The position numbers were made by a program, and so were the translations under genes. Positions 5,745 to 24,233 of a stretch of DNA of 64,000 bases are shown here, one piece after another. The DNA comes from Anaerolineae bacterium (GTDB lineage Bacteria; Chloroflexota; Anaerolineae; DRVO01), in NCBI GenBank assembly GCA_040768685.1, contig JAXGMM010000001.1, positions 553,279-617,278 on the forward strand, in the 5' to 3' direction. Under the pieces are notes generated by a model that saw nothing but the letters and a program-made list of their open reading frames with translations, had not been told where the DNA came from and did not search any database. Numbering within the stretch: position 1 is the first letter of the stretch; every line of letters begins with the position of its first letter.

Positions 5745-6737
<993 letters not shown>

Positions 6738-6850
6738 AGCGGACTCCTGATAGGTGACAAGGGATCAGTGGTTAGTGGTTAGTGGACAGTGGGGAGTGGC
6801 TAACAGCTTACTCTGCCGCCCACTGGCCACTGGTCACTATCCACTAGCCA

Positions 6851-7564: not shown

Positions 7565-7685
7565 AGAGCAGTATCCTCAGACGGTGATGAGTGGATAGTG
7601 GACGGCGGCCAGCGGAGAGCCGAGCTCGCACGGGGGTGCGAACCCCTTGCGGAGAAACTCACCACTGGCCGCCGTCCACTGGTCA

Positions 7686-8696: not shown

Positions 8697-8736
8697 TTCA
8701 TCCTCTCCTGATGACCTCTGAGAACCTCACCCCCTC

Positions 8737-8835
8737 GATACTCCGCTGTGCGGAGTATCTGTACCCCTCTCCGACACGGAGAGGGGTTCCGGAGCCCCCT
8801 TCCCGGCGCGGGAAGGGGGTTGGGGGTTAGGTCAC
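8737..8835. repeat. GC-rich triple-hairpin repeat element (copy A)
   Basis: three consecutive perfect hairpins GATACTCCGC-tgtg-CGGAGTATC, CCCCTCTCC-gacac-GGAGAGGGG, CCCCCTTCCC-ggcgc-GGGAAGGGGG followed by TTGGGGGTTAGGTCA; same core recurs at 33115, 36538, 41471. Confidence 0.6.
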
Positions 8836-10235
8836 TTTCTCGCCTCGGCCTGCAACTTGATGGCGGTCTGGATGCCGCCGATGTACAGCGTGTCGTAGGC
8901 CTGCTGCGACGTCTTGAAAGGGCCGACGCCTTCCTTCCCGTGCCAGTCGCCCTGGTGGTACATGGGGTTGGGCAGGCCCGTCTCGGCCTCGCGCTTGGCA
9001 ATGTAGGCGTGCATGCGCGCGCTCAGCGTCGCCACCATCTCCGGCTCGCTCTCGGCCAGGTTATGGTTCTCGCCCGGGTCCTGGATCAGGTTGTAGAGCT
9101 CCACCGGCGGCTTGAAGTGGAAGTCGGGCTCCAGCGCTTCTATCAGCTTCCATTCCGGGGTGCGCCAACCATGCTTGCGCATCCAGGTGCACTCGGTTAG
9201 GTAGATCTCGCTCTCGAAGGAGGGCGCCTCGCCGCGCACCAACTGCATGAGGCTCGGCCCATCCATCTGGTAGTCGCCCGGGTCGATCTCGGCCAGCTCG
9301 AGGATGGTGGGCAGCAGGTTCTTGTGCTGGTTGTAGCCGGGAACGCGCAGCCCCGCCGGCACCTTGCTCGGGTAGCGGATGATCAGCGGCACGTGCAGGG
9401 TGTTGTCGTAGATGCCGTGGTGATCAAAGTAGCAGTCGTGGTCGTAGAGCGTCTCGCCGTGATCGGAGTTGATGACCACGATGGTGTCGTCCAGGACGCC
9501 CAGGTCCTCCAGTTGGTGGAAGATGGTCTGGATACAGGCGTCCATGTAGGCCACCGAGCCGTCGTACTGGGCGATGATGTAGTCCTTGTCGGTGATTCCG
9601 GGCGGCATCCAGGAGGCGAAGAAGTCGCGGAAGGGCTTGAAGGCCATCACCGGGTCCATGGAACGGTTGTCCGGGTTGGTCTCGTTGCCGTGGTAGAAGG
9701 CCCGCTCGTAGGGGGGCGGCGGCAGGTAGGGAGAGTGCGGGTCCATGTGGCGCAGGAAGAGGAAGAAGGGCTTGCGCGACTTGGCCAGCCGGTCCAGCTC
9801 CGGCACGGCGACGTCGTTGAGGTTCTGCGCCTTGGGGCTGCGACCGTCGGCCCAGGAGCCCCAGCCGGGGAAGTCGATGTACTTGGCGAAGTCGCGCGCC
9901 GCCGCGTTGCCCTTGAAGCCGACGGAGGTGGTGTTGTAGCCGGCCTCGTTGCAGAACTGGGCCAGCGTCTTGGCCTCGGAGCGCATGGGGCCCTTGTGCC
10001 GCAGCGCCACCACCTGGGTGCCGAAGGCGTCGCGCCCGGTGAACATGCCGGCGTAGCCGCTGGTGGTGGGGATGTGAGGGCTGTAGGTGCGCTCAAACAG
10101 GGTTCCCCCCTGGGCGAAGCGGTCGATGTGGGGAGTGGTGAGGCGAGGGTAACCGTAGCACGACATGTGATCGGCCCGCAGGGAGTCGATCCCGAAAAGG
10201 AGAATGTTCGGTCTCCGACGGCGTCTCGGTGGCAT
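8832..10235 (-). CDS. sulfatase-like (alkaline phosphatase superfamily) hydrolase/transferase lacking the CxPxR motif
   Basis: NILLFGIDSLRADH and TPHIDRFAQGG align to sulfatase N-terminus but FGly position reads IPTTSGY (Thr-Thr instead of Cys-x-Pro); no signal peptide; SD GGAGG before ATG 10235. Confidence 0.8.
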   Translation of the reverse strand: MPPRRRRRPNILLFGIDSLRADHMSCYGYPRLTTPHIDRFAQGGTLFERTYSPHIPTTSGYAGMFTGRDAFGTQVVALRHKGPMRSEAKTLAQFCNEAGYNTTSVGFKGNAAARDFAKYIDFPGWGSWADGRSPKAQNLNDVAVPELDRLAKSRKPFFLFLRHMDPHSPYLPPPPYERAFYHGNETNPDNRSMDPVMAFKPFRDFFASWMPPGITDKDYIIAQYDGSVAYMDACIQTIFHQLEDLGVLDDTIVVINSDHGETLYDHDCYFDHHGIYDNTLHVPLIIRYPSKVPAGLRVPGYNQHKNLLPTILELAEIDPGDYQMDGPSLMQLVRGEAPSFESEIYLTECTWMRKHGWRTPEWKLIEALEPDFHFKPPVELYNLIQDPGENHNLAESEPEMVATLSARMHAYIAKREAETGLPNPMYHQGDWHGKEGVGPFKTSQQAYDTLYIGGIQTAIKLQAEARK

Positions 10236-10269
10236 GTGACCTCCAGGGTACGGTCGAGCTGGTGGGGCG

Positions 10270-10298
10270 ATTGTACTACCGCGGCGCGAGGGTGACTA
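10270..10298 (-). promoter_or_regulatory. candidate sigma70-type promoter of the sulfatase-like/Gfo operon
   Basis: minus strand reads TAGTCA-17nt-TACAAT about 30 nt upstream of ATG 10235. Confidence 0.35.
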
Positions 10299-10584
10299 GC
10301 GCGGCGTCTCCTATGGCGAGCAGTTGGTGTATGACATCGAGCGCCTGAAGCGCCACTTCCCGGCGGTACCGATCAAGGTCATCCTTGTCGACGCGGACTG
10401 AAGCAGGAACTAGCGATTCCTGACGTCCTACTTGACTCACGCAACAACGCCGGGACGCCAAGCAACACTCCCTTGGCGTCTCTGCGTCTTGGCGTGAGCC
10501 GTCCCCTCTCCTCCCCTTGATGCGCCGCCCCTTCACCGCTATCCTTCCTCCCGACCAAACCTGCCTGCTCGGGAGGCTTTCCCC

Positions 10585-11379
10585 ATGAGACCGAACCGGC
10601 TGCGTGAACTGCTGGACCAGGACCGGCCCAGCATCGGCACCCACGTCCAGTGCACCTGGCCCGCCATCGTCGAGCTCATCGGCCAGACGGGCATGTACGA
10701 CTACGTGGAACTGGTGGGCGAGTACGCACCTTACGATCTCTACTCCCTGGACAACTTCGGCCGCGCCGTGGACCTCTTCCCCAACTTCAGCGCTATGTTC
10801 AAGGTGGACCAGGAGCCCCGCGGCTACCTGGCGCAGAGGGCCATGGGCGCCGGAATCCAGAACCTCCTCTTCGCCGACATCCGCACGGTCGAGGACGCGC
10901 GCCGGTGCGTAAGCATCGTCCGGGCGGAGTCGCCGCAGACGGGCGGCATCCACGGGGTGCATATGCGCCGGTCGGTGGGGTACGTCCGGGACGTGGGCAA
11001 CGCCGCCTTCGTGCAGTCCCTGGAGGACGCCGTCGTCGCCCTCATGATTGAGAAGAAGGCGGCGGTGGAGAACCTGGAGGAGATACTCGAGGTGAAGGGC
11101 GTGGACATGGTGCAGTTCGGCCCCGCCGACTACTCCATGAGTCTGGGGATCCCCGGCCAGTGGAGCGATCCGCGGGTGTGGGAGGCGCAGAAGTTGACCA
11201 TCGAGACGGCGCTGAAGATGGGCGTGGCGCCGCGCGCGGAGATCGGCTCCGTGGACCAGGCCAAGCGCTTCTTGGACCTGGGCGTGAAGCACTTCTGCAT
11301 CGGCACCGATGTGGTGATCCTGTCGCAGTGGTGGAAGCAGACCGGCGATGACCTGCGCAAGCTGGTCGAGACCGCCTAA
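10585..11379 (+). CDS. HpcH/HpaI family 2-keto-3-deoxy-sugar acid aldolase
   Basis: N-terminus MRPNRLRELLDQDRPSIGTHV and size 264 aa typical of HpcH/HpaI class II aldolases (KDR/KDGlucarate aldolase-like). Confidence 0.8.
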   Translation: MRPNRLRELLDQDRPSIGTHVQCTWPAIVELIGQTGMYDYVELVGEYAPYDLYSLDNFGRAVDLFPNFSAMFKVDQEPRGYLAQRAMGAGIQNLLFADIRTVEDARRCVSIVRAESPQTGGIHGVHMRRSVGYVRDVGNAAFVQSLEDAVVALMIEKKAAVENLEEILEVKGVDMVQFGPADYSMSLGIPGQWSDPRVWEAQKLTIETALKMGVAPRAEIGSVDQAKRFLDLGVKHFCIGTDVVILSQWWKQTGDDLRKLVETA

Positions 11380-11394
11380 GAAGAGGGAGACTAT

Positions 11395-12186
11395 ATGGAC
11401 ATCAACCGCGTATCCTGCTGCTCGTACCCCATGCGCGCCCTGCCGCCGGAGCACTCCTTCCGCGCCCTCAGCGAGGCGGGGTACAAGAAGATCGACCTCT
11501 GGGGCGGCATGCCGCACTTCGACGTGAACAACCCCGAGTATGACTTCGACGCCGTGCTCGCTCTGTCGGAGAAGTACGGCGTGCGGATCGGCAACATCGG
11601 CTCCTACTGCGGCGCGGGCTTCACCAGTGAGGACGAGGCCGAGCGCGAAGCCGAAGTGGTGAAGACGACGAAGGTGCTGGACGCGGCTGCCCGCGCCGGC
11701 GCCCGTTCCGTGCGCAGCGTCCTGGGCCGGCCGGAGTCGCCGGAGCATCTGGCGCGCGTTCTACCCTACTACCAGCGCGTTGCCGAGTACGCTGAGAAGG
11801 TGGGCGTGTACATGGGGGTGGAGAACCACGGCGGCCCGTGCAGCGGCAATCCGCAATTGCTTGCCTGGTTCTTCGACAAGGTGGGCAGTAAGTACACCGG
11901 CGTCCTCTACGAGCCCTGCAACCTGATGTCGGCCGGGGTGGACTACAAGCAGGCCTTCGAGACGATGAAGGACTACATCACCCACATGCACATCAAAGAC
12001 TGCTACCCCATCAACGGCAAGATGCAGACGGTGTGGCTGGGAACCGGCATCATCGACTATCGCTGGGTGGTGGCGGCGCTGGAGGGTGCCGGCTACACCG
12101 GCGACTACCCGATCGAGTACGAGGTAGACGACGAGCCGCCGGAGCAGGGCATCGGCAAGTGGCTCGACATGTGGATGAAGATCTGA
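11395..12186 (+). CDS. sugar phosphate isomerase/epimerase (xylose isomerase-like TIM barrel)
   Basis: AGYKKIDLWGG...VENHGG...HMHIKD motifs of AP_endonuc_2 family; 16 nt after aldolase stop. Confidence 0.8.
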   Translation: MDINRVSCCSYPMRALPPEHSFRALSEAGYKKIDLWGGMPHFDVNNPEYDFDAVLALSEKYGVRIGNIGSYCGAGFTSEDEAEREAEVVKTTKVLDAAARAGARSVRSVLGRPESPEHLARVLPYYQRVAEYAEKVGVYMGVENHGGPCSGNPQLLAWFFDKVGSKYTGVLYEPCNLMSAGVDYKQAFETMKDYITHMHIKDCYPINGKMQTVWLGTGIIDYRWVVAALEGAGYTGDYPIEYEVDDEPPEQGIGKWLDMWMKI

Positions 12187-12261
12187 CCTGACCCGGCTGG
12201 CTCGTCACGCCAAGGGGCCGGCCCGGGTGGCCCCGACGAACCATCCGCATCGCCTCGGTAG

Positions 12262-12292
12262 GGGAGGGCCTCCGCGCCCTCCCTTGTTTTGT
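12262..12292 (+). terminator. rho-independent terminator
   Basis: GGGAGGGC-ctccgc-GCCCTCCC stem followed by TTGTTTTGT. Confidence 0.6.
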
Positions 12293-12355
12293 CGCAAACA
12301 TGCCTGTCTCAGCATGGTCAAAAGTGCGTGCTTGCCGTTTGCCTCAGGTATGCCA

Positions 12356-12385
12356 TTGACGGGTGTATACCGGCGCGCTTATGCT
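12356..12385 (+). promoter_or_regulatory. candidate sigma70 promoter for ABC transporter operon
   Basis: TTGACG-17nt-TTATGC(T) in a locally AT-richer stretch about 255 nt upstream of ATG 12641. Confidence 0.35.
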
Positions 12386-12640
12386 AGCACTATGCAGAGG
12401 CCTTGGCCGAGCGGCAATGCTGTTTGGCCCTCTTGGCTTGGACATTTCGGCTCGGCTACGCATGGTGCACTCTGCGTCCCGCCGCCAGGTGGGCTCTACG
12501 GCCGAGCCGGTCCCCTGCCCGTCTCACAGAGGAGGTGAATAAGCCCGGCGCGAGGGGAAGAGGAGTTGGGGGGGTCAAGAGGCGATCCGTAGCAGAGCGA
12601 TCAGCGCTGTAGCTTCGTTCATGCAAGGGGGCAGCAAGAG

Positions 12641-14629
12641 ATGAGTAGACCATTCACCCGACGTGACTTCCTGAACCTGGTAGCCTTGGGTAGCGCAGGA
12701 GCATTGGCGTCGTGTGCTCCGGCTACGCCTGGGGCAGTTGCAGGCGTGCCGGAGACGGCCGCGCCTGAAGCCGTCACCACCTTGGGGTTCCCCCGTGCCG
12801 AGACCGTCTTCGCCCAACAGTTGACGGGACGCAATGCCACTCCCAGCAACTTTAATTCTTGGGCCGGCTGGCGGCAGCGGGACCGCGGCATGCAGCAGGT
12901 CATGCACGAGCAACTATGGATCGACGACTTCGAGCGAGGCGAACTCATCGACGCGCTGGCCGTTGCCCCGCCGGAGTACAGCGACGACTTCAAGACGATG
13001 ACCTTCCAGATCCGCGAGGGCGTGTACTGGAGCGACGGCGTCGAGCTCACCGCTGAGGACGTTGCGTTCACCATCGACTTCACCCGGTTGGCTTCCGGCG
13101 CGTCGTTCAACGCCAGCGTGGCGGCGCAGGTCGAGAGTGTCGAGGCGACAGACGGCCAAACGGTGGTGGTTCAGCTCAAGGAGCCGAACCCGCGTTTTCA
13201 CTTTGAGAACCTTTGCGACCTGTGGGGCAGCCTGTGGGTGATGCCGAAGCATGTGTTCGGGCAGTTCCTGAAGGATGGCGAGGTTGACACGGAGGGCTTC
13301 TTTGCCTTCGAGTACAATCCTCCCCTCAGCAGCGGGCCCTACAAGCTGCACAGCTTCGATCCGGCCGGCAATTGGACGGCGTGGGAGAAGCGCGAGGATT
13401 GGCAACGCACACCTACCGGGATGCTCTTCGGCGAGCCCAAGCCGAAGTACGTGGTGTTCGTGGACTATGGCGACTTCACGGCCCGCGTCATCGCCATGAC
13501 TCGGCACGAGGTCGATCAGGTCGACCTTGACTTGCCTGCCATCAGAGCCGCCACCAAGGCGGAACCGACCGCCCGCGGCTACTATGCCGATCAGGGGTTC
13601 CCCTGGCTGCAGTCCAACCGCCACCCGGGCGTCGGTGGGACGGTGTTCAATACCCTCAAGCCTCCGTTCGATAACCCGGACGTCCGCTGGGCACTTGCCC
13701 TGGCCATTGAGCCGGTCTCCTACAGCACGACGGCGTACGACGGGTGTGCCGCCATGAACCCGCTGCCCATCGTCGTCAACGCCCCGCAGATGCAGGAGCC
13801 CTTCATCAAGCCACTTATGGCGTGGCTGGAGGACTTGACCATCGATGTAGGCGGCGGGGAGATGGTCAACGTGTGGGACCCCACGGCGCCGATGCGATTG
13901 GTGGAGGATGCGCGGGAGCGAGGCTTCGAGTTCCCGGATGACCCGGACCTGATTAGGTCGGCGTTCGGCTATGGCTCGTGGCAGTACAACCCCGATGCGG
14001 CCACCAAGCTGCTCAAGAAGGCGGGCCTACAGCAGGACGCCGACGGCAAGTGGCTCCTAGCGGACGGCACGCCCTGGCAGTTCAGCGTCTACACGGACAC
14101 CATCCCCGGTCGCTGGTCCTACCAGAACGCGCAGGCAGCGTACGTGGAGTGGCAGCGGTTTGGGCTGGATGTGAGGTTCGAGGTAGGCGACGCCGGTCAG
14201 CTGCGGATCGAGCACGGCAACTTCGACGTCTGCGGCGCCCAGACGCACGGCAGCAACTACCTGGAGAACCCCGATCTCTTCAGAACGTTCACTGCCTTCC
14301 ACTCGTCGTATCTGCAGCCGGTTCTCGGCGAACGCCAGTGGGGCCATCCCTCACGCTGGACGGACAGCACGGTGGATGCGCTGCTCGACGAGATCCGGGT
14401 AACAAACCCGATCGACCTCGAAACGCTGCAGCCACTGGGTCTGGAACTGCTCAAGACCTGGATAATGGCCATGCCTGCCATCTCGGGCACTACTTCGCTG
14501 GACCCGTATGCGGTCTCGAGCTACTACTGGACCGGCTGGCCGAGTGCTGAGGATCACTTCATAGTGCCTTACCATCACTATCCGAACTTCAAGTACCTCC
14601 TCACCTTCCTGAAGCCGGCAGCCGGCTAA
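12641..14629 (+). CDS. ABC transporter substrate-binding protein, family 5 (peptide/oligosaccharide), Tat signal lipoprotein
   Basis: MSRPFTRRDFLNLVALGSAGALASC twin-arginine motif plus lipobox Cys; length 662 aa typical SBP_bac_5. Confidence 0.85.
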   Translation: MSRPFTRRDFLNLVALGSAGALASCAPATPGAVAGVPETAAPEAVTTLGFPRAETVFAQQLTGRNATPSNFNSWAGWRQRDRGMQQVMHEQLWIDDFERGELIDALAVAPPEYSDDFKTMTFQIREGVYWSDGVELTAEDVAFTIDFTRLASGASFNASVAAQVESVEATDGQTVVVQLKEPNPRFHFENLCDLWGSLWVMPKHVFGQFLKDGEVDTEGFFAFEYNPPLSSGPYKLHSFDPAGNWTAWEKREDWQRTPTGMLFGEPKPKYVVFVDYGDFTARVIAMTRHEVDQVDLDLPAIRAATKAEPTARGYYADQGFPWLQSNRHPGVGGTVFNTLKPPFDNPDVRWALALAIEPVSYSTTAYDGCAAMNPLPIVVNAPQMQEPFIKPLMAWLEDLTIDVGGGEMVNVWDPTAPMRLVEDARERGFEFPDDPDLIRSAFGYGSWQYNPDAATKLLKKAGLQQDADGKWLLADGTPWQFSVYTDTIPGRWSYQNAQAAYVEWQRFGLDVRFEVGDAGQLRIEHGNFDVCGAQTHGSNYLENPDLFRTFTAFHSSYLQPVLGERQWGHPSRWTDSTVDALLDEIRVTNPIDLETLQPLGLELLKTWIMAMPAISGTTSLDPYAVSSYYWTGWPSAEDHFIVPYHHYPNFKYLLTFLKPAAG

Positions 14630-14647
14630 CATAGCCGCACAAGAGCG

Positions 14648-14684
14648 CCCGCGAGCAAGCCGTAGTGCCTGCTCGCGGGTTGCC
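14648..14684 (+). promoter_or_regulatory. intercistronic stem-loop between SBP and permease genes
   Basis: CCCGCGAGCA-12nt loop-TGCTCGCGGG perfect 10-bp stem then TTGCC; typical partial terminator/mRNA stabiliser placement. Confidence 0.4.
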
Positions 14685-14709
14685 ATGGACAACGCAGTCT
14701 GGGGGAAGA

Positions 14710-15717
14710 ATGAGATTCGTGAGGCGCTACCTGATCCCGCGGTTGATCCAATACGTGGGGGTGACTGTCCTCGGGATCACCATGATCTTCATGCTGCCTA
14801 GGCTTATGCCCGTAGGCCCGGTGGAGAAAGCGGTCGCGCAGGTGATGGCTCGAGGCACCTACTCCGACCCCAAGGCGGCCGAAGAGACGGTACGGGCGCT
14901 CCGCGAGATGTACGGATTGGACCAAGGGCTGCTGCAGCAGTACCTGGGGTTCTGGCGCCGGTTGTTCACAGCTGATTTCGGGCCGTCGCTGGTGGCGTTT
15001 CCCGCTCCGGTGAATGACCTCATAGCTGCCTCTCTTCCGTGGACGATGGGTCTGCTGTTCACGACGACGGTGCTGGTGTTCATCATCGGCAACCTCACCG
15101 GCGGATTGGCGGGGTTCTTCAGTCGGAGTCGGACCATGCAGGTTGTGGACGCGATGGCCATGGTCCTGGCTCCGATGCCGTACTACATTGTCGCCCTCAT
15201 GTTGATCATCTTGTTCGCGCATATCCTGCCCGTCTTTCCTGTGGGTGGCGCCTACACCATCGGCGCCAGGATCGAGCTCTCTCGGGGTTTCGTGATCGAC
15301 GTTCTGCGGCATGCGTTCCTTCCGGCCGTGTCTCTCGTGGTCCTCGGCGTGGCCACTACCCATCAGGTGATGCGGCTTATTGTGCAGGGCGTCCGAGAGG
15401 AGGACTACGTTCGCTATGCTCAGATCGCCGGCGTGAACCGCTGGACGATCTTCACACGCTACGTGATGCGGAACGCCATGCTGCCTCAGATCACGCGTTT
15501 TGCCCTGGGCTTCGCATCTTTGTTTAGCGGTGCACTGATCACCGAGATCGTCTTCGCTTATCCTGGAGTGGGCCTGCTCACCTACAAAGCCATCCTCTCA
15601 TCGGACTACAACGTGCTCATGGGCGTCACAACCTTGTCGATCGTGGCCCTGACGACCAGCACCCTGATCATGGACCTTCTGAACCCGCTCTTCGATCCGC
15701 GGATCAGGTTGACGTGA
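14710..15717 (+). CDS. ABC transporter permease (DppB/OppB type)
   Basis: BPD_transp_1 EAA-like loop, 6 TM; start at internal ATG 14710 (MRFVRRYLIPRL) preceded by GGGGGAAG. Confidence 0.85.
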   Translation: MRFVRRYLIPRLIQYVGVTVLGITMIFMLPRLMPVGPVEKAVAQVMARGTYSDPKAAEETVRALREMYGLDQGLLQQYLGFWRRLFTADFGPSLVAFPAPVNDLIAASLPWTMGLLFTTTVLVFIIGNLTGGLAGFFSRSRTMQVVDAMAMVLAPMPYYIVALMLIILFAHILPVFPVGGAYTIGARIELSRGFVIDVLRHAFLPAVSLVVLGVATTHQVMRLIVQGVREEDYVRYAQIAGVNRWTIFTRYVMRNAMLPQITRFALGFASLFSGALITEIVFAYPGVGLLTYKAILSSDYNVLMGVTTLSIVALTTSTLIMDLLNPLFDPRIRLT

Positions 15718-15733
15718 GAGGAGAGCGTCTCAG

Positions 15734-16588
15734 ATGAAGACACTAAGGGCCTTCTTCAGGGACCGGCGTTTCAGCATCGGCGCGGCACTGATGGCGGGGC
15801 TGCTCTTCCTGGCCTGTCTCTCGTTTCTGTCACCCTACAACCCGACCGTCTGGCGAGTTGTGCCTCGTGACCTCGCGCCTTCATCGGCGCACTTGCTGGG
15901 GACTACTTCCCTGGGCCAGGACGTGTTCTGGCAGCTCACCGCCGCCATACGCAACTCGCTGCTCCTGGCTGTCTTCTCGGCGATGATATCGAGGTTAATC
16001 GCCCTCTTCGTAGGGCTGGTGGCCGGCTACGTCGGTGGGATGGTGGACCGGGCGCTGATGTTTATCAGCGACGGTTTCATAGTGCTGCCTCTGCTGTTGG
16101 TGCTCGTGATGCTGGCGATCCTCATTCAGGAGCAACTGAGCCTACTAACCATGGGGTTGCTCTTCGCGCTGTTTGGGTGGGCGCTAGACGCTCGGTTCAT
16201 ACGCTCGCAGATACTCAGCCTCAGGGAGAGGGAGTTCACGTACACCGCTATCCTCTCAGGCACCCCCCCACTCAGGCTGATCTTCAACGAGTATCTCCTC
16301 TTCGTGGTGCCACTGACGACAGCGACGCTCATCGGGAACATGATCTGGGTGACCGGTATGGAAGTCACTCTGGCCTACCTGGGCCTGACGGACATTGCCG
16401 TCCCTACACTAGGCACCATGCTGCACTTCGCCCTCAACTACCAGGCGGTGCTGCTGGGGCTGTGGTGGTGGATCTTCACCCCTATCGGAGCGGCTGTGGT
16501 GCTTTTCGTCGCGCTGTACCTTCTGTCGATCAGCATCAGCGAGTACCTTGATCCACGGGCCCGCATCCAGCGAGTGGGCGGGAGATAG
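15734..16588 (+). CDS. ABC transporter permease (DppC/OppC type)
   Basis: N-terminal OppC-like region, BPD transporter signature, 284 aa. Confidence 0.85.
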   Translation: MKTLRAFFRDRRFSIGAALMAGLLFLACLSFLSPYNPTVWRVVPRDLAPSSAHLLGTTSLGQDVFWQLTAAIRNSLLLAVFSAMISRLIALFVGLVAGYVGGMVDRALMFISDGFIVLPLLLVLVMLAILIQEQLSLLTMGLLFALFGWALDARFIRSQILSLREREFTYTAILSGTPPLRLIFNEYLLFVVPLTTATLIGNMIWVTGMEVTLAYLGLTDIAVPTLGTMLHFALNYQAVLLGLWWWIFTPIGAAVVLFVALYLLSISISEYLDPRARIQRVGGR

Positions 16589-16597
16589 GGGCGGGCC

Positions 16598-17599
16598 ATG
16601 TGGGTGATCAAGGCAGAGAGGTTAGAGGCATCGTACTTCCTGGACATGCTGGGAACCAGGAGGGTCGTAACAGCGGTCAACGGTGTCGATCTGGAGGTCC
16701 GGGCAAACGAGATCTATGGGATAGCGGGGGAGAGTGGCTGCGGCAAGACGACTCTGGTCAAGACACTGCTCGGGGATGTCCAGCCGCCGCTGCGAGTGGT
16801 CGGCGGCAAGGTGCACTACCGCGTCGATGGAGAGGATCTCGATCTGTATTCGCTGAAGCCGGAGCTGCGACAGCGGCTTCGTTGGTCGTTCATCTCCTAC
16901 GTGCCCCAGAGTTCAATGAGCAATCTCAACCCGGTGGCCAAGCTGAAGGGCTCCTTCAGGGACTTCCTGAGAAGCCACGTGGGGCGTCGCGATGGTGGAG
17001 AGCTGCTGGAAAAGGCACGACAGCACCTGATGCACCTTGGGCTGCCCCCGAACGTGCTGGAGGCCTATCCGCACCAGTTATCAGGGGGCATGCGCCAGCG
17101 GGTGGTGATCGCTCTGGCTACTGTGCTCTCGCCTCGCGCTGTGGTCACCGACGAGCCGGTTACGGCTCTGGACGTGGTCGTTCAGCGGGGTGTGCTTCAG
17201 CTTCTACGGGAGGTGCAGCAGGAGCAGCAGAACGCCTTGGTGATGGTCACTCATGACATGGGGGTGCTGGCCAACATCGCCGATCGCGTCGGGATCATGT
17301 ACGCTGGGAGGATCATAGAGGAAGCGCTCGTCGAGGCCATCTTCAGGCAGCCACGACACCCGTATACCCAGTACCTGATCAACTCCTTACCCAAGTTCGG
17401 GGACAAGACGATGCGGGAAAGCGCCCCCGGGGCGCCTCCGTCTCTGGCCGATCTTCCCAAGGGATGCCCCTTCCATCCTCGCTGTCGGTACGCCATGGAC
17501 ATGTGCAGGGAGGCTGTGCCGCCCTCCGTGACCATCGCCGATCAGCATAGGGTGTCCTGTTGGCTGACCCAGGAGGGAGACGATAGACGCCATTCTTGA
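16598..17599 (+). CDS. ABC transporter ATP-binding protein (DppD/OppD type)
   Basis: Walker [20 protein letters not shown] signature, C-terminal oligopeptide ABC extension with Cys-rich [14 protein letters not shown]. Confidence 0.85.
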
Positions 17600-17627
17600 G
17601 GTCCAGAACGTAAGCAGAATCTTCCAC

Positions 17628-18566
17628 ATGGGCAGCGTCTTCTCGCGGCTCCGCATCACAGCCGTGGAGAAGGTGTCCCTGAGTGTGCACCGGGGCGAGA
17701 TCTTCGGGTTGGCGGGTGAGAGCGGTTGCGGCAAGAGCACCCTGGCGAAGATGATTCTCGGGTTCGAGGAGCCCAGCGAGGGTGAGATCATCCACCGGGG
17801 CCGGAGCGGAGAGAGCATCACCGGCAAGAACGCCTGGAGACGGGCAGGCGTGCAGCTGGTCTCCCAGAACCCGTTTGAGGCCTTCAATCCCCTGCGTCAG
17901 GTCGAGGCCTACTTCTTTGAGGGAGTGCGCAACTTCCGGCTGGCGGGCAACCGAAAGGACGCGTTAGCAGCCATCGATGGGGTGCTTCGGCTGGTCGGCA
18001 TGAGCTACGATGAGATCGCCGGCCGCTACCCGGCGGAGTTCTCGGGCGGACAACTGCAGCGAGTCTCGATTGCCAGGTCGCTTCTCAGCGGGCCTCTGTT
18101 GTTGATTGCCGACGAGCCGGTGTCGATGGTAGACGCCTCGCTACGAATGTCCATCATGAACCTCTTTCGGGAGTTGAAGGACAGACTCGGCCTAGGCATC
18201 GTGTATATCACGCATGACTTGGCGTCCGCGTACTACGTTTGCGACCGCATAGCCATCATGTTTCGAGGCAATGTCGTCACCATGGGTGATGTGGATAAGG
18301 TGCTGCTGGAGCCCAGGCACCCCTACGTGAAGCTGTTGCGCGAGTGCATCCCCGAGCCGGAGCCGGACAAGCGCTGGACCAGCAAGATACGCCTGGCCGA
18401 GAGCGAGGCACAGGAGTACTTGCGGACGGGCTGCAAGTTCGCCGGTCGGTGCGCACAGGCCATGGAGATATGCATGCGCGAGGCCCCAGAGTGCACCGAG
18501 GTCGATGGCACTCTTATCCGGTGCCATCTGTACGCCGGCGAGATTGCCAAGGAGAGCGTCTGCTAG
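17628..18566 (+). CDS. ABC transporter ATP-binding protein (DppF/OppF type)
   Basis: Walker [14 protein letters not shown], signature FSGGQLQRVSIAR, Walker B LLIADEP. Confidence 0.85.
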   Translation: MGSVFSRLRITAVEKVSLSVHRGEIFGLAGESGCGKSTLAKMILGFEEPSEGEIIHRGRSGESITGKNAWRRAGVQLVSQNPFEAFNPLRQVEAYFFEGVRNFRLAGNRKDALAAIDGVLRLVGMSYDEIAGRYPAEFSGGQLQRVSIARSLLSGPLLLIADEPVSMVDASLRMSIMNLFRELKDRLGLGIVYITHDLASAYYVCDRIAIMFRGNVVTMGDVDKVLLEPRHPYVKLLRECIPEPEPDKRWTSKIRLAESEAQEYLRTGCKFAGRCAQAMEICMREAPECTEVDGTLIRCHLYAGEIAKESVC

Positions 18567-18749
18567 GTCAGAAGGGCGGGCATTAGCACAGCGGGACGAA
18601 TGCACCGCCCGCTCCACAGCAGGCGTCTCTGCGACAGGCGCAGGGCGGCCGCTCTGGCGGCGGTCGGGCGCAGATCGCGATGCGCGGTCCCGTCTGTGTT
18701 TGTAGCCAGAGACACTAGGGCACGGGGAGCCAATTCCGGGAGGGATTGC

Positions 18750-19820
18750 ATGTCAGAGCGCATGACGACTAGAGAGCGGATCCAGCGGATGTTCGATCAC
18801 AAAGAGGCCGACCGAGTGCCTATCGTGGATACGCCCTGGGAGTCTACCATCGCCCGATGGCACCGGGAGGGTATGCCGGCCGGCGTCAACTGGTCCGAGT
18901 ACCTCGGCGCGGACTGCGTCCGCTTCATCACGACTGACAACAGTCCGCGCTATCCACGGCGGATGGTCGAGGAGACCGATGAGTACCGGATATACACCAC
19001 TGAATGGGGCGCGACGCGCAAGGACTACCACGACCAGAGCGGCGCGTTAGGCTATCTCGAGTACACGGTGAAGGACCGCGCCTCGTGGGCCGAGGCCAAG
19101 GAGCGGATGCAGCCGAGCCGCGACCGCATCGATTGGGACCAACTGCGGCGCGACTATCGGCGCTGGCGCGAGCGGGGCGACTGGGTGATGGGAGTCCTCT
19201 GGTTCAACTTCGAGGTGACCTACTCCCACATGGTGGGCCCGCAGTTGTTCCTGGCCATGGCCGAGGACCCGGAGTGGGTCATGGACATCGTTCACACAAT
19301 GCTTGACAGCAGCATCGTCTTACTCGAGATGGTGTGGGACGCCGGGTACCACTTCGATGGTGTCCAATGGTACAACGACATGGGTTTTAAGGGAAAGCAG
19401 TTCATGTCCGTACCCATGTATCGTGAGCTCTTCAAGCCGGCCGACAAGCGCGCGGCCGAGTGGGCCCACGCCAAGGGGCTTCCCGTCTACTACCACTCCT
19501 GCGGGAACCTAGGCCCCTTGGTTCCGGAACTGATTGATGCCGGCGTGGACATGCTCAACCCGCTGGAGGTGAAGGCGGGGATGGACCCGCTTGCCTTGAA
19601 GGCGGAATACGGTAATCGGCTGGCGTTCCACGGAGGGCTGAACGCGATGCTCTACGAGCAACCGGAGAGCATGTGGGCGGAGATGGAGCGCGTCATCCCG
19701 ACGATGATGAAGGACGGGGGCTACATCATCGGCACCGACCACTCGGTGCCGGACAGTGTCGGCCTGGAGCAGTACCGCGAGTTCATCAGGCGGGCTAAGG
19801 AACTGGGCAGGTACTCCTAG
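18750..19820 (+). CDS. uroporphyrinogen decarboxylase (URO-D) family protein, MtaA/CmuA-like
   Basis: MSERMTTRERIQRMFDHKEADRVPIVDTPW N-terminus and C-terminal GGYIIGTDHSVP block typical of URO-D/MtaA fold; GGGAGGG SD before ATG 18750; last gene of the ABC operon. Confidence 0.7.
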   Translation: MSERMTTRERIQRMFDHKEADRVPIVDTPWESTIARWHREGMPAGVNWSEYLGADCVRFITTDNSPRYPRRMVEETDEYRIYTTEWGATRKDYHDQSGALGYLEYTVKDRASWAEAKERMQPSRDRIDWDQLRRDYRRWRERGDWVMGVLWFNFEVTYSHMVGPQLFLAMAEDPEWVMDIVHTMLDSSIVLLEMVWDAGYHFDGVQWYNDMGFKGKQFMSVPMYRELFKPADKRAAEWAHAKGLPVYYHSCGNLGPLVPELIDAGVDMLNPLEVKAGMDPLALKAEYGNRLAFHGGLNAMLYEQPESMWAEMERVIPTMMKDGGYIIGTDHSVPDSVGLEQYREFIRRAKELGRYS

Positions 19821-19964: not shown

Positions 19965-21110
19965 TCACTTGTCCCGCGGTGCGACGTCGACCGCTTCCAG
20001 TGGAACGCCGGCGCGCACAGTCAGAGCGGCCACGAGCCGTCGGTGCAGCACTTCAGGGACGCCCTCACAGTCCTCCAGGGGGAATTCCCCATCCTCCTCG
20101 CGCAGCACGGCGACATCGGCGCAGGCGCCCTCCCGTAGGGTGCCGATCTCGTCCTGCATGCCCAGCATGGCGGCCGGGGCGGCGGTGGACAGCCGCACCA
20201 CCTCGGCGAGGTCCATGCCCAGGTGGAGGAACTTGCTCATCACCGACGTCATACCGAAGGCGGGCCCGTTGATGCTGCCGGTGTGGACGTCGGTGGAGAT
20301 GGAGTCGGGCGGGAAGCCTTGCTCCAATGCGTACCGCGCCACCTGCCAGGAGAAGCTGCCGGCGCCGTGGCCGACGTCGAATAGGACGCCGCGTTCCCGC
20401 GCTTCCCAGGCCTCCGGCCGGACTCTTCCCCCGTGGATGACCAGGCAGCCGGTGCGGCCCTTGTAGGCGTGGGTGATGATGTCGCCCGGGCGCATGATCG
20501 GGAGGATGGCCCAGAGGCCCGGAGGTGGAACGCCGATGTGGCACATGACCGGCAGGTTGACGGCCTCGCCAACCTCGCGCGCGATGCGAACCGGCGTTAG
20601 GTCGTTGGCGCCCACCTGCAGGCCGCTGGCCAGCACCTTGATGCCCTTGATGAGGTCGCGGTTGGCCTGCACCGTGTCGTAAGCGGCGTCGGCGTTGTAG
20701 TGGTGCACGTTCTCGTGCGCGCCGCTATAGGCGGTGAGCCCCGGTGTCGAGATGTTCAGGTAGGGCGCGATGCGAACGGTGGACGGCTCGATGAGGAACC
20801 GCCGGAAGCCGGCGAAGTTGCTCGCCCCGGCAGAGCCGGCGTCCACCCAGGTGGTGGCGCCGCTGCCGGGAGCGTGCTTGTCGGCCTCGAGATTAAGGTA
20901 CCCGGCGCCCCAGTACACGTGGGTATGCATGTCAATGAGGCCGGGCGTCACCAGGCAGCCGGATGCGTCGAAGGTGCGTTCCGCCTCGGCGACGATGGCG
21001 GTGGCCACCCGAGCGATGCGGCCGTCGAAGATGGCGACGTCGGCTCGTTCATTCCGCCCGGTCGACGGGTCAAGGACGCGGCCATTGCGGATAACGAGTT
21101 GATAGCGCAT
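19965..21110 (-). CDS. amidohydrolase family metallo-hydrolase (deacylase/dihydroorotase-like)
   Basis: GLIDMHTHVYWG metal-binding HxH, DVGHGAGSF, 381 aa; paralog of adjacent gene. Confidence 0.75.
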   Translation of the reverse strand: MRYQLVIRNGRVLDPSTGRNERADVAIFDGRIARVATAIVAEAERTFDASGCLVTPGLIDMHTHVYWGAGYLNLEADKHAPGSGATTWVDAGSAGASNFAGFRRFLIEPSTVRIAPYLNISTPGLTAYSGAHENVHHYNADAAYDTVQANRDLIKGIKVLASGLQVGANDLTPVRIAREVGEAVNLPVMCHIGVPPPGLWAILPIMRPGDIITHAYKGRTGCLVIHGGRVRPEAWEARERGVLFDVGHGAGSFSWQVARYALEQGFPPDSISTDVHTGSINGPAFGMTSVMSKFLHLGMDLAEVVRLSTAAPAAMLGMQDEIGTLREGACADVAVLREEDGEFPLEDCEGVPEVLHRRLVAALTVRAGVPLEAVDVAPRDK

Positions 21111-21196
21111 TCGGTCTCTCCCGCCGGGCGGATGGTCGCAGTGTATGCCGGCGGGGGTTCCGTGCCAACGGAAGCGGTCTTGGGCGACGAGGCCGC

Positions 21197-22315
21197 CTAG
21201 AGTCGCTCTCCGCTCCGGATGGTGTGCACCGGCACAAGCCTCTCGGTCACGATCTCCGTGACGCCCTCAGTGTCGGTGAGGGGGAAGCGACCGTCTTCTA
21301 AGCGCAGGATGCTCACATCGGCCTCGGCGCCCAAGCGCAGGTGACCCAGGGAGTCTGACATGCCAAGGGCGTGTGCGGGCGCGGTGGTCGCCAGACGCAC
21401 CACTTTGGGCAGCGAGAGGCCCAGGTGGAGGAACTTCGTCATCACCGACGGCAGGCTGATGGCCCCGCGCGCCACGCTGGCGACGTGGAGATCGGTGGAG
21501 ATCACGTCCGGCGGGAAGCCCTGGGCCAGCGCCGCCCGCGCCACGCTCCAGGAGAAGCTGCCCGCCCCATGCGCCACGTCGAAGAGCACCCCGCGCTGCC
21601 GGGCGGCCCACGCTTCGTCGCGCACCCGATCGCCCTCCACCAGCAGACACCCCTTCCGGCCCTTGTAGCAGTGGGTGATGATGTCGCCGCCGCGCATCAG
21701 GGGAAGCATGTCGCCCAGACCGGGCGGGGGCGCGCCGATGTGGCACATCACCGGCAGGCCGGTGGCCTTGCCCGCCTCTAGGGCGGTCCGCAACGGAATG
21801 AGGCCGCTGGGGCCGACGCGCATCGCGCAACTGAGCACTTTGATGCCGCGGATCAGGTCGCGGTTGTCCTCCACGGTGCGCCAGACGGAGTCCACATTCA
21901 GGTGCTCGATGACGCCGTGGACTACCTCCAAGCAGGTGAGGCCGGGCTCGGATATGTTGAGGAAAGGCACGATCCGAGCCCGAGCCGGCTCGATCACGTA
22001 GTGCCGGAAGGCGCGGAAGTTGGCCGATCCGGCACTGCCCGCGTCCACCCAGGTGGTGACGCCGGCCGCGGCCGCGTGGGCGTCGGCGTCGAGGCTCAGG
22101 TCGTCAAGACGGTGCGCTACGTGCGTGTGCAAGTCGACCAGGCCGGGAACGACCAGGCAGCCGGAGGCGTTCAGGCGATTGCTGGCCTCGGCCGCAGAGA
22201 GGTCCGGCGCGATGTCCGCCACCCGACCGTCGACTACAGCCACGTCGGCCACTTCATCGCGCCCTTGAGCCGGGTCGAGGACGCGCCCGCCGGTGATCAG
22301 GAGGTCGTAGCGCAT
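21197..22315 (-). CDS. amidohydrolase family metallo-hydrolase (paralog)
   Basis: MRYDLLITGGRVLDP, GLVDLHTHV, DVAHGAGSFSW; colinear similarity to 19965-21110. Confidence 0.75.
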   Translation of the reverse strand: MRYDLLITGGRVLDPAQGRDEVADVAVVDGRVADIAPDLSAAEASNRLNASGCLVVPGLVDLHTHVAHRLDDLSLDADAHAAAAGVTTWVDAGSAGSANFRAFRHYVIEPARARIVPFLNISEPGLTCLEVVHGVIEHLNVDSVWRTVEDNRDLIRGIKVLSCAMRVGPSGLIPLRTALEAGKATGLPVMCHIGAPPPGLGDMLPLMRGGDIITHCYKGRKGCLLVEGDRVRDEAWAARQRGVLFDVAHGAGSFSWSVARAALAQGFPPDVISTDLHVASVARGAISLPSVMTKFLHLGLSLPKVVRLATTAPAHALGMSDSLGHLRLGAEADVSILRLEDGRFPLTDTEGVTEIVTERLVPVHTIRSGERL

Positions 22316-22342
22316 GCGGTCTCCCGAGGGCTGCCGTTCGCT

Positions 22343-24064
22343 CTAGTCGGCGCCCGCGTCGATGTAGGCGTACTGAAGGATGGGGACCACCATCGATGGG
22401 TGCGGCAGGTCCCTTACGTAAGGCTTGGTCAGCCGGTACTCCACGTCGTGGTAGAGGGGGATCACCGGGGACTCGGCAAGGACGGTCTTCTCCGCTTCCA
22501 GGTAGAGGAGGTGGCGCGTCTCCAGGTCCATCTCCAGCCCTGCCTCGCCGAGGAGCCGGTCCACCTCCGGGTTGGAGTAGCCGCTATGGTTGTCGTAGCT
22601 GGCGCTGTCGAAGAGGACCTTCAGGAAGTTCTCCGGGTCCGGATAGTCGGCGATCCATCCGAGGACGTACATCTGGTAGGGGTGGTGCGGATCGTCCAGG
22701 CCCTCGAGGAAGTCGCGCCAGTCGCTCTGTTCGACCTCCAAGGTGATGCCCAGGTTCTCCTCTAGCGTGACCGCGATCGCCTCGGCCACTGAGTCAGTCT
22801 GGGGGGCGGTGTTCGCCACGTGTAGGGTGATGGTGGGCAGCCGTTCCGCCCCGCCGTAGCTGGACTGCGCCAGCATCTCCAAGGCGGCGGCAGGGTCGTA
22901 CTCGGGGCCGACTATGCCCGCGTTGTCGTAGTGAGGCATGCCCGGAGGGATGATGGTGGAAGCCGCCGGCACGGTGCTCTGGTAGAGCATGTCCACGATC
23001 CGCTGCCGGTCCAGCGCCATGGCGAAGGCCTGCCGCACCTCGGGCTCGTCGAAGGGGGCGGTGTCGCAGCGCAGGCCGACGTAGAAAGTGGCCAACTGAT
23101 CGATGATCGACAACTCGTCGTTCAGGCCCTGCTCGGGATCGGTGATTCGAGGCAGGTTGCTGATGCCGACGCCGGTCACATCAAGCTCGCCGTTCTCGTA
23201 CATGGTGACGCCCTCGCCCCCGCCCAGCATGAACACCACCCGGTCGAGCGCCGGCTGGGGGTCGCGGTAGTAGTTGCGGTTGGCGAGCAGGGTGATCTGG
23301 GAGCCCGGCACCACCTCGCCCAGCCTGAAGGGTCCGGTGCCGTTGAAGCGCTCCAGGACGTCTTTCGAGTCCAGCGACCGGCGGTCGACGACGAAGGCGA
23401 CCGGGTGCGACAGCTTGGCCAGGAAGGAGGGACGCGGGGCGTCGATCTCTATCTCGAGAGTGTAGTCGTCCAAAACTCGGACGCCCTCAAGGTGATCGGC
23501 GTCGCCCGCGAGCATGGCCTGGGCGCCGACGATGTCGCCCAAGTAGGTGGAAGCGATGGGCGAACCGGTGGCAGGGTCGCACGAGCGCTCAAGGGAGAAC
23601 CGGAAGTCCTCGGCGGTTACGGGCGTGCCGTCATGGAAGACGACATTGGTGCGCAGGTGGAAGGTGTAGACGGTACCGTCCTCGCTGACCTGATAGGACT
23701 CGGCGATGTCAGGCGTCAGCGCCAGGTCGGCGCCGGCGGTGACGAGACCGCTGTAGATCTCGACGATGTACTGGGCTGAGGTGCTGTCCTGGCTCATGGC
23801 CGGGTCGAGCGTGGGGGGCATGGAGCCCGGGAGGCGGAGTTCGCCGCCGATGGGACGGCCGTCCGTGGTGAAGGCGCCGGGCGTCGGGCCGGGGACGGCT
23901 CGCGTCGCGATGACGCCGGTGGCACGCATCTCGAGGCCATCGTAGGACAACTCACCCGGGCGGATCGACATGAGGGTAAGGCCGGCGCAGCCGCCGCAAA
24001 GAACCAGGCAGCCGCACGCGAGGGCAATCACGAGCAGAATCACGATCGGCGAACGTTTTCCCAT
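22343..24064 (-). CDS. ABC transporter substrate-binding protein, family 5, lipoprotein
   Basis: signal peptide with LACGC lipobox; SBP_bac_5 length; start ATG 24064 has AAGGGAG SD (alternative 24088). Confidence 0.8.
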   Translation of the reverse strand: MGKRSPIVILLVIALACGCLVLCGGCAGLTLMSIRPGELSYDGLEMRATGVIATRAVPGPTPGAFTTDGRPIGGELRLPGSMPPTLDPAMSQDSTSAQYIVEIYSGLVTAGADLALTPDIAESYQVSEDGTVYTFHLRTNVVFHDGTPVTAEDFRFSLERSCDPATGSPIASTYLGDIVGAQAMLAGDADHLEGVRVLDDYTLEIEIDAPRPSFLAKLSHPVAFVVDRRSLDSKDVLERFNGTGPFRLGEVVPGSQITLLANRNYYRDPQPALDRVVFMLGGGEGVTMYENGELDVTGVGISNLPRITDPEQGLNDELSIIDQLATFYVGLRCDTAPFDEPEVRQAFAMALDRQRIVDMLYQSTVPAASTIIPPGMPHYDNAGIVGPEYDPAAALEMLAQSSYGGAERLPTITLHVANTAPQTDSVAEAIAVTLEENLGITLEVEQSDWRDFLEGLDDPHHPYQMYVLGWIADYPDPENFLKVLFDSASYDNHSGYSNPEVDRLLGEAGLEMDLETRHLLYLEAEKTVLAESPVIPLYHDVEYRLTKPYVRDLPHPSMVVPILQYAYIDAGAD

Positions 24065-24233
24065 CAAGAACGCGGCTCCCTTAACCATCGGGTCTGTACG
24101 GATTCATGAGGCAACGGGCGTCATTCTATGGGCCGTTCCCGGCAACGGCAAAGCCCGGCCCCTCTTGATTCGGCGTGACGGTCCGGCTACACTCGACTCC
24201 AACGATGATGAATGATCAACTGAGGGCCGAGCC

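Follow-up and report, generated by a model that had tools for sequence, protein, structure and literature searches.

MtaA-like UroD-superfamily proteins in an Anaerolineae genome: putative methyltransferases, one encoded beside a probable oligosaccharide ABC importer

Introduction

What does a protein of the uroporphyrinogen decarboxylase (UroD) superfamily do when its gene closes an operon for an ATP-binding cassette (ABC) importer? The question is raised by a 64,000-nucleotide stretch of the genome of an Anaerolineae bacterium (contig JAXGMM010000001.1, positions 553,279 to 617,278; "the window" below means this whole stretch), which encodes two intact UroD-superfamily proteins, copy 1 and copy 2, and the remains of a third. 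A first-pass annotation had proposed that such proteins were recruited here into sugar-type operons and act as decarboxylases or in methyl transfer on an imported substrate. From the family profiles, the predicted active-site residues and the gene neighborhoods of relatives, we infer that copies 1 and 2 are metal-dependent methyltransferases on the MtaA/O-demethylase side of the superfamily.

Many clades of the UroD superfamily are uncharacterized (PMC10418091, PMC13222342), and these two papers say nothing of members linked to sugar operons. The open-access literature searched likewise had nothing relevant on UroD proteins tied to sugars, transporters, polysaccharides or the phyla considered here, which is weak evidence of absence. 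The closest public relatives of the window are uncultured Anaerolineae from anaerobic digesters and bioreactors. One related locus (L008; loci of relatives are given L numbers throughout) is 96% identical across copy 1, the genes downstream being common to both, and another (L088) is syntenic with the window over 45-61 kb. The GC content of the window is 61-71% in 2-kb windows, and it contains no Rfam family at gathering score and no tRNA gene.

Results

Copies 1 and 2 are not HemE

Copies 1 and 2 belong to the UroD superfamily, with a UroD fold and Pfam scores above the PF01208 gathering cut-off of 23.9 bits (copy 1, 54.3 bits, C-terminal half only; copy 2, 114.1 bits, full length). They share 29% identity (E 8e-31), and the profiles of their respective families, family 1 and family 2, match over their full length (hhalign E 5e-44). 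When scanned against NCBIfam, copy 1 did not match the HemE equivalog TIGR01464 and copy 2 reached 20.8 bits, against a cut-off of 302.95 bits; the MtaA/CmuA model TIGR01463, with a cut-off of 235.4 bits, gave 22.9 bits for copy 1 and 88.6 bits for copy 2, both below that threshold. MtaA/CmuA models were the best named NCBIfam matches of the copies, and no curated family cut-off was reached. The family profiles likewise scored better with MtaA (4ay7) than with HemE, both for family 2 (profile A3, E 3e-15 versus 5e-11) and for family 1 (profile A1, E 0.004 versus 0.21), and 4ay7 is the best solved relative of the copy 2 protein itself (E 3e-7). Identity is 13-14% to MtaA and 13-17% to HemE structures, and similarity to CdmB (9rui) is marginal (E 9.5e-4 for copy 2 and 1.3e-6 for the A3 profile, with no match for copy 1).

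The N-terminal signature PxWxMRQAGR of HemE binds the substrate, with Arg37 and Arg41 in the human enzyme. This Arg-rich signature is absent from the copies, whose N-termini read MTTRERIQRMFDHKEADRVPIVDTPW and MNARERFLAVLDGVQPDRVPTFEILI, with ..ADRVPI.. and ..PDRVPT.. in the place of the HemE motif. HMMER aligned no N-terminal part of either copy to HemE structures; the aligned stretches were limited to residues 282-349 in copy 1 and 155-340 in copy 2. Because the HemE equivalog fails, the N-terminal signature is absent and His-x-Cys replaces Phe-Thr-Lys (see below), a HemE identity was rejected on hidden Markov model scores and residue alignments; by sequence, copies 1 and 2 are MtaA-like, not decarboxylase-like.

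A predicted metal site of the O-methyltransferase kind

His249 and Cys251 of copy 1, and His233 and Cys235 of copy 2, align with the zinc-ligand motif lHiCGn of MtaA, at a position where HemE (3cyv) has F-T-K-G. Glu273 of copy 1 is aligned with the MtaA Glu, from which Asp257 of copy 2 is at most one position away. The place of the third MtaA Cys is taken by His331 in copy 1, within an invariant D-H-S, and by an invariant Asn318 in copy 2, with His321 three residues on. The MtaA zinc triad His-x-Cys...Cys is thus kept in neither copy, the His and the first Cys being present. On the choice between HemE and MtaA catalytic residues that the first-pass annotation had raised, the copies come down on the MtaA side at His-x-Cys and lack the HemE signature, with the third Cys replaced.

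These features are conserved among the 120 best homologues of each family. HSCG occurs in at least 114 of the 120 family 1 proteins and D-H-S in all 120, while at the second ligand position family 2 has Asp in 92 of 120 and Cys in 28 of 120, the window's copy 2 being among those with Cys. Copies 1 and 2 probably bind a metal, most plausibly zinc, at the predicted site.

In the UroD superfamily, His-Cys-Cys marks S- and Se-methyltransferases, and replacement of a Cys by a carboxylate or a non-ligand marks O-methyltransferases (PMC10418091). Such replacement is found at the second position in family 2 and at the third Cys in both families, so that both families fall, by this published criterion, on the O-methyltransferase side.

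Copy 1 is coupled to a probable oligosaccharide importer

The reported position of a UroD protein at the end of an Opp/Dpp-like ABC operon (12641-19820) was borne out in gene order and strand: copy 1 follows a five-gene Opp/Dpp-type importer (Table 1) after a gap of 183 nucleotides (nt). Its open reading frame (ORF) spans 18600-19820, and an alignment with 32 homologues placed the start at Met 18750, giving a protein of 356 amino acids (aa). The gene is best read as 18750-19820 because the homologue alignment begins there and the Arg-rich in-frame extension at 18600-18750 is missing from every homologue. Scans found no terminators around copies 1 and 2, and promoter-like sites occurred there at chance level.

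The coupling between copy 1 and the importer is conserved in three genomes, the window and two other Chloroflexi with 65-74% protein identity. In L006 (74% identity) orthologues of the binding protein, the permeases and the ATPases precede the UroD gene. In L009 (65% identity) the UroD gene stands within the operon, with the binding-protein gene on one side and the permease genes on the other; the binding-protein orthologues score 1108 bits (L009) and 1069 bits (L006). The transporter co-occurrence that the first-pass annotation expected therefore stands for these loci, but does not extend across family 1.

The binding protein has its nearest solved relatives at E values of about 1e-25 to 1e-28 (2o7i and 4jsd, 3e-28; 4pfu, 9e-25), which we take to be Thermotoga maritima proteins that bind cellobiose, laminarin or mannosides. 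The record of 4pfu is named "Mannoside ABC transport system, sugar-binding protein," the nearest relatives being otherwise named "oligopeptide" binding proteins, and a further solved match is the chitin-oligosaccharide binding protein 1zty. Overall the protein is far nearer to sugar binders (E 1e-28) than to haem binders. A Dpp-type importer for haem or 5-aminolaevulinic acid, with copy 1 as HemE or as a porphyrin-salvage enzyme, is an explanation that we regard as effectively refuted. HemE is metal-free and without His-x-Cys; the copies fail the equivalog, have His-x-Cys for F-T-K, lack the Arg-rich motif and are as distant from HemE as the identities above indicate, the binding protein is closest to sugar binders, and no hem biosynthesis genes occur among the approximately 35 annotated neighboring genes (about 20 distant genes of the window lie outside the annotation).

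Directly upstream of the importer are genes for an HpcH/HpaI-type aldolase and a xylose-isomerase-like TIM barrel (10498-12186), which may belong to the same catabolic locus as the ABC and UroD genes. L009 likewise has an AP_endonuc_2 and Gfo pair upstream of its orthologous operon.

Further genes flank this locus. Convergent with copy 1 on the minus strand (19965-24103) are two tandem paralogous amidohydrolase/deacetylase metallohydrolases (NF006689, over cut-off) and then an OppA-like protein, the second SBP_bac_5 protein of the window (22343-24103); this arrangement is kept in L008. Divergent from the aldolase, TIM-barrel, ABC and UroD genes is a minus-strand cluster at 5745-10295 that encodes a sulfatase (PF00884 and SGSH_C), a pair of Gfo/Idh/MocA oxidoreductases and a 241-aa protein that matched no family in an NCBIfam scan. 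Sulfatase homologues lie within 10 kb of family 1 genes in 7 of 79 loci.

Relatives of copy 1 and corrinoid genes

As judged from homologue searches, each intact copy represents a large, well conserved and widespread family. At 90% clustering, homologues of copy 1 number more than 3700, the top matches listed being nearly all about 356 aa long and 55-95% identical, and a pattern scan of one genome per species located family 1 relatives at 581 places or more. They occur in Chloroflexota, Armatimonadota, Clostridia/Limnochordia, Spirochaetales, Lentisphaerota/Victivallales, Kiritimatiellae, Verrucomicrobiota and Planctomycetota, most of which degrade glycans. For copy 2 the homologues number about 2000, with a similar range of phyla.

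To describe family 1 neighborhoods, ORFs were called in 79 loci and clustered by BLAST, and first- and second-shell neighbors were scanned against Pfam. No general operon partner emerged across the 79 loci, none being present in more than about 5% of neighbors. The most frequent second-shell families were Gfo/Idh/MocA, short-chain dehydrogenases, aldo-keto reductases, AraC, ROK and parts of Opp-type transporters, in a shell otherwise similar to the first, and Gfo-type genes lie within 10 kb in 13 of 79 family 1 loci and 7 of 83 family 2 loci. By a strict search, 20 of the 79 loci hold two to four UroD-like ORFs. One locus, L034, has up to nine with UroD-like similarity or H-x-(C/D)-G, eight of them with the motif at the expected place.

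A corrinoid protein and/or the activating enzyme RACo is encoded within 10 kb, mostly in the same operon, in 8 of the 79 loci (L009, L010, L026, L034, L037, L042, L056 and L068), which we judge to be well above chance because such genes are rare, with few per genome. In L010 (Anaerolineae, 63% identity) a UroD paralogue, the family 1 gene and a corrinoid protein gene follow one another in that order. L034, L037 and L068 encode a corrinoid protein, a homocysteine S-methyltransferase, DUF1638, UroD paralogues including a family 1 member, and RACo, and L042 has the same parts in another order. In L009, the locus with the UroD gene inside the importer operon, a corrinoid protein is encoded 1.5 kb from that operon, possibly with a further UroD-like gene, and beyond it lie a xylose-isomerase-like TIM barrel and a Gfo gene. 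The cognate corrinoid protein that the first-pass annotation advised looking for was not found in the 64-kb window; corrinoid proteins were found beside relatives of the two families in L009, L010, L034, L037, L042, L056, L068, L129 and L168.

One of these clusters (L034:4550-17114) is an operon with a corrinoid protein, a PF02574 homocysteine S-methyltransferase, DUF1638, RACo and up to eight H-x-(C/D)-G UroD paralogues. A split methionine synthase described in Phaeobacter comprises DUF1638, a RamA-like activase and separate B12-binding and homocysteine-binding proteins (Price et al. 2018, PMC5764234). The L034, L037, L042 and L068 clusters share its parts and therefore resemble such a module that receives its methyl groups through UroD-type methyl-donor enzymes. 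Unlike that system, they have no identified pterin-binding part and carry up to eight UroD paralogues instead, a sign that their methyl donors may not be methyl-tetrahydrofolate. The window was found to contain none of these parts.

A further group of proteins of 359-393 aa (cluster 6) lies beside the corrinoid protein in L009 (4205-5332, minus strand) and among the UroD and DUF1638 genes in L042 (11172-12248, plus strand). These proteins have no Pfam match and carry an H-L-D-G motif at the UroD ligand position, and the 376-aa L009 protein aligned weakly with family 1 (hhalign probability 12.7%); cluster 6 may be a very divergent UroD-type methyltransferase.

Copy 2 and the carbohydrate setting of family 2

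Copy 2 (54090-55145) lies 108 nt downstream of clpX, in the order tig-clpP-clpX, and 276 nt upstream of a GFO_IDH_MocA gene. The first-pass annotation had placed it just upstream of a Gfo/PFK-like operon; the position is correct, but the specific link did not survive comparison with L085 and L088. In L085 the copy 2 orthologue (81% identity) is followed by opposite-strand genes with no Gfo/PFK pair, and in L088 a minus-strand ORF separates the orthologue from Gfo. An operon of copy 2 with Gfo/PFK was rejected on this synteny; the order conserved around copy 2 is tig-clpP-clpX-UroD only. The association is positional only, since the adjacency is broken in both relatives, and the Gfo/PFK pair is probably not co-operonic with copy 2.

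Across 82 distinct metagenomic and genomic family 2 loci, the flavor of the neighborhood is clearly carbohydrate. FGGY kinases are present in 17 of the 82, often directly adjacent and in unrelated metagenomes. At least one recurring sugar-type gene occurs in 37 of 82 loci, and in 24 of the 46 loci with six or more ORFs. The recurring clusters include CUT1 and CUT2 sugar ABC parts, class II aldolases, class II fructose-bisphosphate (FBP) aldolase, PfkB, SIS, xylose-isomerase-like TIM barrels, Gfo, and Zn-, Fe- and short-chain dehydrogenases.

A minority of family 2 loci have a corrinoid-type context. A corrinoid protein is encoded directly downstream in L129, RACo is present in L121 and DUF1638 in L164, and three MttB genes surround the UroD gene of L157. 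In L168 (Peptococcaceae CEB3, 49% identity to copy 2), sugar genes, UroD and a corrinoid protein gene lie on one strand in the order DeoR, PfkB, UroD, PfkB, class II FBP aldolase, SBP_bac_1, two permeases, two Zn-dependent alcohol dehydrogenases, a 67-aa ORF and the corrinoid protein. The L157 stretch (8527-14039) places its family 2 member among three genes of the MttB superfamily (trimethylamine/quaternary-amine), the UroD and upstream MttB ORF calls overlapping by about 100 nt, and suggests that some family 2 members serve amine-demethylation systems.

Remains of a third copy

The decayed third copy reported at 44539-44982 was confirmed as a relic, with a recognizable part at 44584-44883. 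By tblastn in any frame, only this stretch is recognizable, corresponding to about residues 206-305 of a protein of about 350 aa; it matches copy 1 with 39% identity (E 6e-17) and had no match in the Pfam scan. It lies in a gap between two minus-strand genes. At the syntenic position L088 carries an intact UroD-like gene (L088:16-1038) with 61% aa identity to the relic, and in the DNA alignment the core is conserved, with deletions of 9 nt and about 87 nt, and the 5' half cannot be aligned. The relic is read as a true pseudogene because the L088 gene is intact at the same place and the window DNA has suffered deletions and lost the 5' half. Sequence comparison assigns it to a third subfamily (32% identity to copy 1).

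A 449-aa protein (45067-46416, minus strand) is encoded beside the relic and also beside the intact L088 gene. Its match to the neutral/alkaline ceramidase N-terminal domain is weak, at 29 bits and under the cut-off, and its homologues flank family 1 UroD genes in L021 (1589-2878) and L072 (6571-9987; pattern 48+ 29+ 48+ U+). The association of ceramidase-like and UroD genes is thus a recurrent one. On the other side of the relic, two large ORFs with overlapping ends (39996-44389, minus strand; 887 and 700 aa) have a good coding signature and no Pfam match, and the 700-aa ORF has no counterpart in any fetched locus. This stretch has the highest GC content of the window (~0.71) and a strong positive AT skew of 0.17-0.25.

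Table 1. UroD-superfamily genes of the window and the genes discussed with them; positions are counted from the first nucleotide of the window.
Feature	Position	Strand	Basis or remark
HpcH/HpaI-type aldolase	10498-11379	+	Directly upstream of the ABC operon
Xylose-isomerase-like TIM barrel	11395-12186	+	Directly upstream of the ABC operon
SBP_bac_5 substrate-binding protein, 662 aa, probably oligosaccharide-binding	12641-14629	+	PF00496, 166 bits
ABC permease 1 (BPD_transp_1)	14665-15717	+	PF00528; orthologues in L009 and L006
ABC permease 2 (BPD_transp_1)	15734-16588	+	PF00528; orthologues in L009 and L006
ABC ATPase 1 (ABC_tran and oligo_HPY)	16598-17599	+	Pfam; orthologues found in relatives
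ABC ATPase 2 (ABC_tran and oligo_HPY)	17628-18566	+	Pfam; orthologues found in relatives
UroD-superfamily copy 1 (family 1)	18750-19820	+	Predicted metal site His249-Ser-Cys251, Glu273, Asp330-His331
Relic of a third UroD-like paralogue, some 100 codons left of about 350	44584-44883	+	tblastn; still reads FHCCG
UroD-superfamily copy 2 (family 2), 351 aa	54090-55145	+	Motif His233-Thr-Cys235, Asp257, Asn318, His321
Gfo/Idh/MocA oxidoreductase	55422-56414	+	Overlaps the PFK gene; neighbor of copy 2
ATP-phosphofructokinase (ATP-PFK)	56411-57397	+	Overlaps the Gfo gene; neighbor of copy 2

Discussion

The function that we favor for copies 1 and 2, with a chance of being right that we put at about even, is corrinoid-dependent methyl transfer, probably O-demethylation of the MT1 type, on imported carbohydrate-derived substrates. 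A methylated carbohydrate-derived compound would enter the cell, for copy 1 as an oligosaccharide-like substrate of the adjacent Opp-type importer. The metal site (His-x-Cys, Glu and His in copy 1; His-x-Cys/Asp, Asp and Asn/His in the family of copy 2) would activate the methyl-bearing heteroatom, the methyl group would pass to Co(I) of a separately encoded corrinoid protein and then to homocysteine or tetrahydrofolate, and the demethylated sugar would enter ordinary catabolism through Gfo-type dehydrogenases, kinases and aldolases. Between the two roles first suggested for these proteins, methyl transfer is favored over decarboxylation because relatives of both families share operons with corrinoid proteins and RACo.

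The same metal site could instead serve a cobalamin-independent enzyme that acts directly on an imported sugar derivative with no corrinoid carrier, by MetE-like direct methyl transfer, sugar-acid decarboxylation, de-esterification or isomerization. We consider this possible but doubtful. It leaves unexplained why relatives with 55-65% identity lie in operons with corrinoid proteins, RACo and DUF1638, and why a relative of copy 2 and a corrinoid protein are encoded in one and the same sugar operon. Decarboxylation of the HemE type is metal-free and uses N-terminal Arg/Asp residues, within the signature that is absent from the copies.

Methyl transfer could also run in the other direction. In an MT2-type role the proteins would not demethylate a substrate but would move a methyl group from a methyl-corrinoid protein to a small thiol or hydroxyl acceptor, as MtaA does with coenzyme M. 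MtaA is the nearest characterized relative by sequence, a universal acceptor would fit with how strongly family 1 is conserved, the other UroD paralogues of the L010 and L034 operons could be the substrate-specific MT1 enzymes, and the family 2 member of L157 lies among three MttB-family MT1 genes. This role is nonetheless unlikely: a UroD gene inside the importer operon of L009 suits an enzyme acting on the imported compound, the L034-type clusters already have a homocysteine S-methyltransferase on the acceptor side, and the His-Cys-Cys triad of the S-methylating members is not kept.

Several observations weigh against corrinoid-dependent demethylation as the function of the window proteins. 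Homologues of the corrinoid protein, RACo, DUF1638 and homocysteine S-methyltransferase were not found in the 64-kb window, nor was a cobalamin riboswitch in an Rfam search of it. About 90% of family 1 loci and about 95% of family 2 loci have no corrinoid gene within 10 kb, most relatives being solitary, and the enrichment of corrinoid genes was weighed against a rough expectation rather than a control set of loci. The predicted metal site differs from that of every characterized member because the third MtaA Cys is replaced, and the UroD-type MT1 enzymes CdmB and the Moorella O-demethylase need no zinc (PMC13222342). No biochemical data were found for any family 1 or family 2 member. The first neighbors of family 1 genes are very heterogeneous, with 135 Pfam families among 127 neighbors and none occurring more than four times.

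This last point bears on whether the neighborhoods carry meaning at all. The copies might be scattered paralogues of an expanded family in accidental positions, as the heterogeneity of family 1 neighbors, the unconserved adjacency of copy 2 to Gfo/PFK and the decay of one copy would allow. We think this very unlikely, since the ABC and UroD genes are kept together in three genomes, once with UroD inside the transporter operon, and 17 of 82 family 2 loci, from metagenomes unrelated to one another, have a flanking FGGY kinase. The initial proposal of recruitment into sugar-type operons holds for the clade of copy 1 but not for family 1 as a whole, because the neighbors of that family are heterogeneous.

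The window proteins would work most like the UroD-type methyltransferases (MtaA, the phenyl-methyl-ether O-demethylases, CdmB and the Mlps), although in the comparisons made here, with CdmB as the MT1 enzyme compared, they fall into none of these defined families. From the methanogen methylcorrinoid:coenzyme M methyltransferases MtaA, MtbA and MtsA (4ay7) they differ in their 13-14% identity and scores far below the MtaA/CmuA cut-off, in the third ligand (Cys319 replaced by His in copy 1 and Asn in copy 2), in a strand-rich stretch at residues 57-105, and in their hosts, which are bacteria without coenzyme M use and carry the genes in a context of sugar transport and catabolism. The MT1 O-demethylases and haloalkane methyltransferases (OdmB, VdmB, MtvB, MtoB and CdmB; 9rui) belong to the same superfamily and are substrate:corrinoid methyltransferases; their partners are a separate corrinoid protein, an MT2 and an activating enzyme, and several paralogues occur per genome. 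The O-demethylases have carboxylates in place of one or both Cys ligands or have lost them (PMC10418091), as in family 2 with its Asp in 92 of 120. Their known substrates are phenyl methyl ethers and halomethanes, in acetogens, archaea and Desulfitobacterium, not compounds of sugar operons, and, unlike these systems, the window has no adjacent corrinoid protein, MT2 or activating enzyme.

The type 1 Mlp clusters, in which several MtaA-like UroD paralogues of non-methanogens occur with a corrinoid protein and RACE/RACo (PMC10418091), resemble the L034-type clusters. Type 1 Mlps keep His-Cys-Cys, are linked to sulfur and selenium metabolism and are mostly from obligately anaerobic Firmicutes (PMC10418091), and their cluster consists of Mlp2, Mlp3, a corrinoid protein and Ram/RACE. 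In the window, by contrast, the triad is not kept, the context is one of carbohydrates and there is no such cluster; PMC10418091 makes no mention of DUF1638, sugars or Chloroflexi.

The glycans of plants, algae and bacteria commonly carry methyl ethers, which aerobes remove by means of oxygenases; little has been described of how anaerobic glycan degraders deal with them. A wider proposal, which we put forward tentatively and hold to be rather unlikely as it stands, is that both families form the substrate-specific arm of an undescribed anaerobic O-demethylation route for methylated carbohydrates and cyclitols. Candidate substrates would include xylo-oligosaccharides bearing 4-O-methylglucuronate, 6-O-methylgalactose, 2-O-methylfucose, 2-O-methylxylose and pinitol-type methyl-inositols, and the glycan-degrading carriers (Chloroflexota, Armatimonadota, PVC-group bacteria and Clostridia) would pass sugar methyl groups through a corrinoid protein to methionine or the one-carbon pool.

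Whatever the substrate, metabolic reconstructions of Anaerolineae-like metagenome-assembled genomes should leave these copies and their relatives out of the set of haem-synthesis genes. If the proteins are corrinoid-dependent sugar demethylases, UroD-type B12 methyltransferases would gain the alkyl methyl ethers of sugars as a new class of substrate, the breakdown of polysaccharides would be tied to methionine and one-carbon metabolism and to the demand for B12 in digesters, sediments and guts, and thousands of "uroporphyrinogen decarboxylase" annotations would be corrected. The main value of the findings lies in a testable proposal for the anaerobic removal of sugar methyl ethers and in the wide mislabelling of these genes as belonging to haem synthesis.

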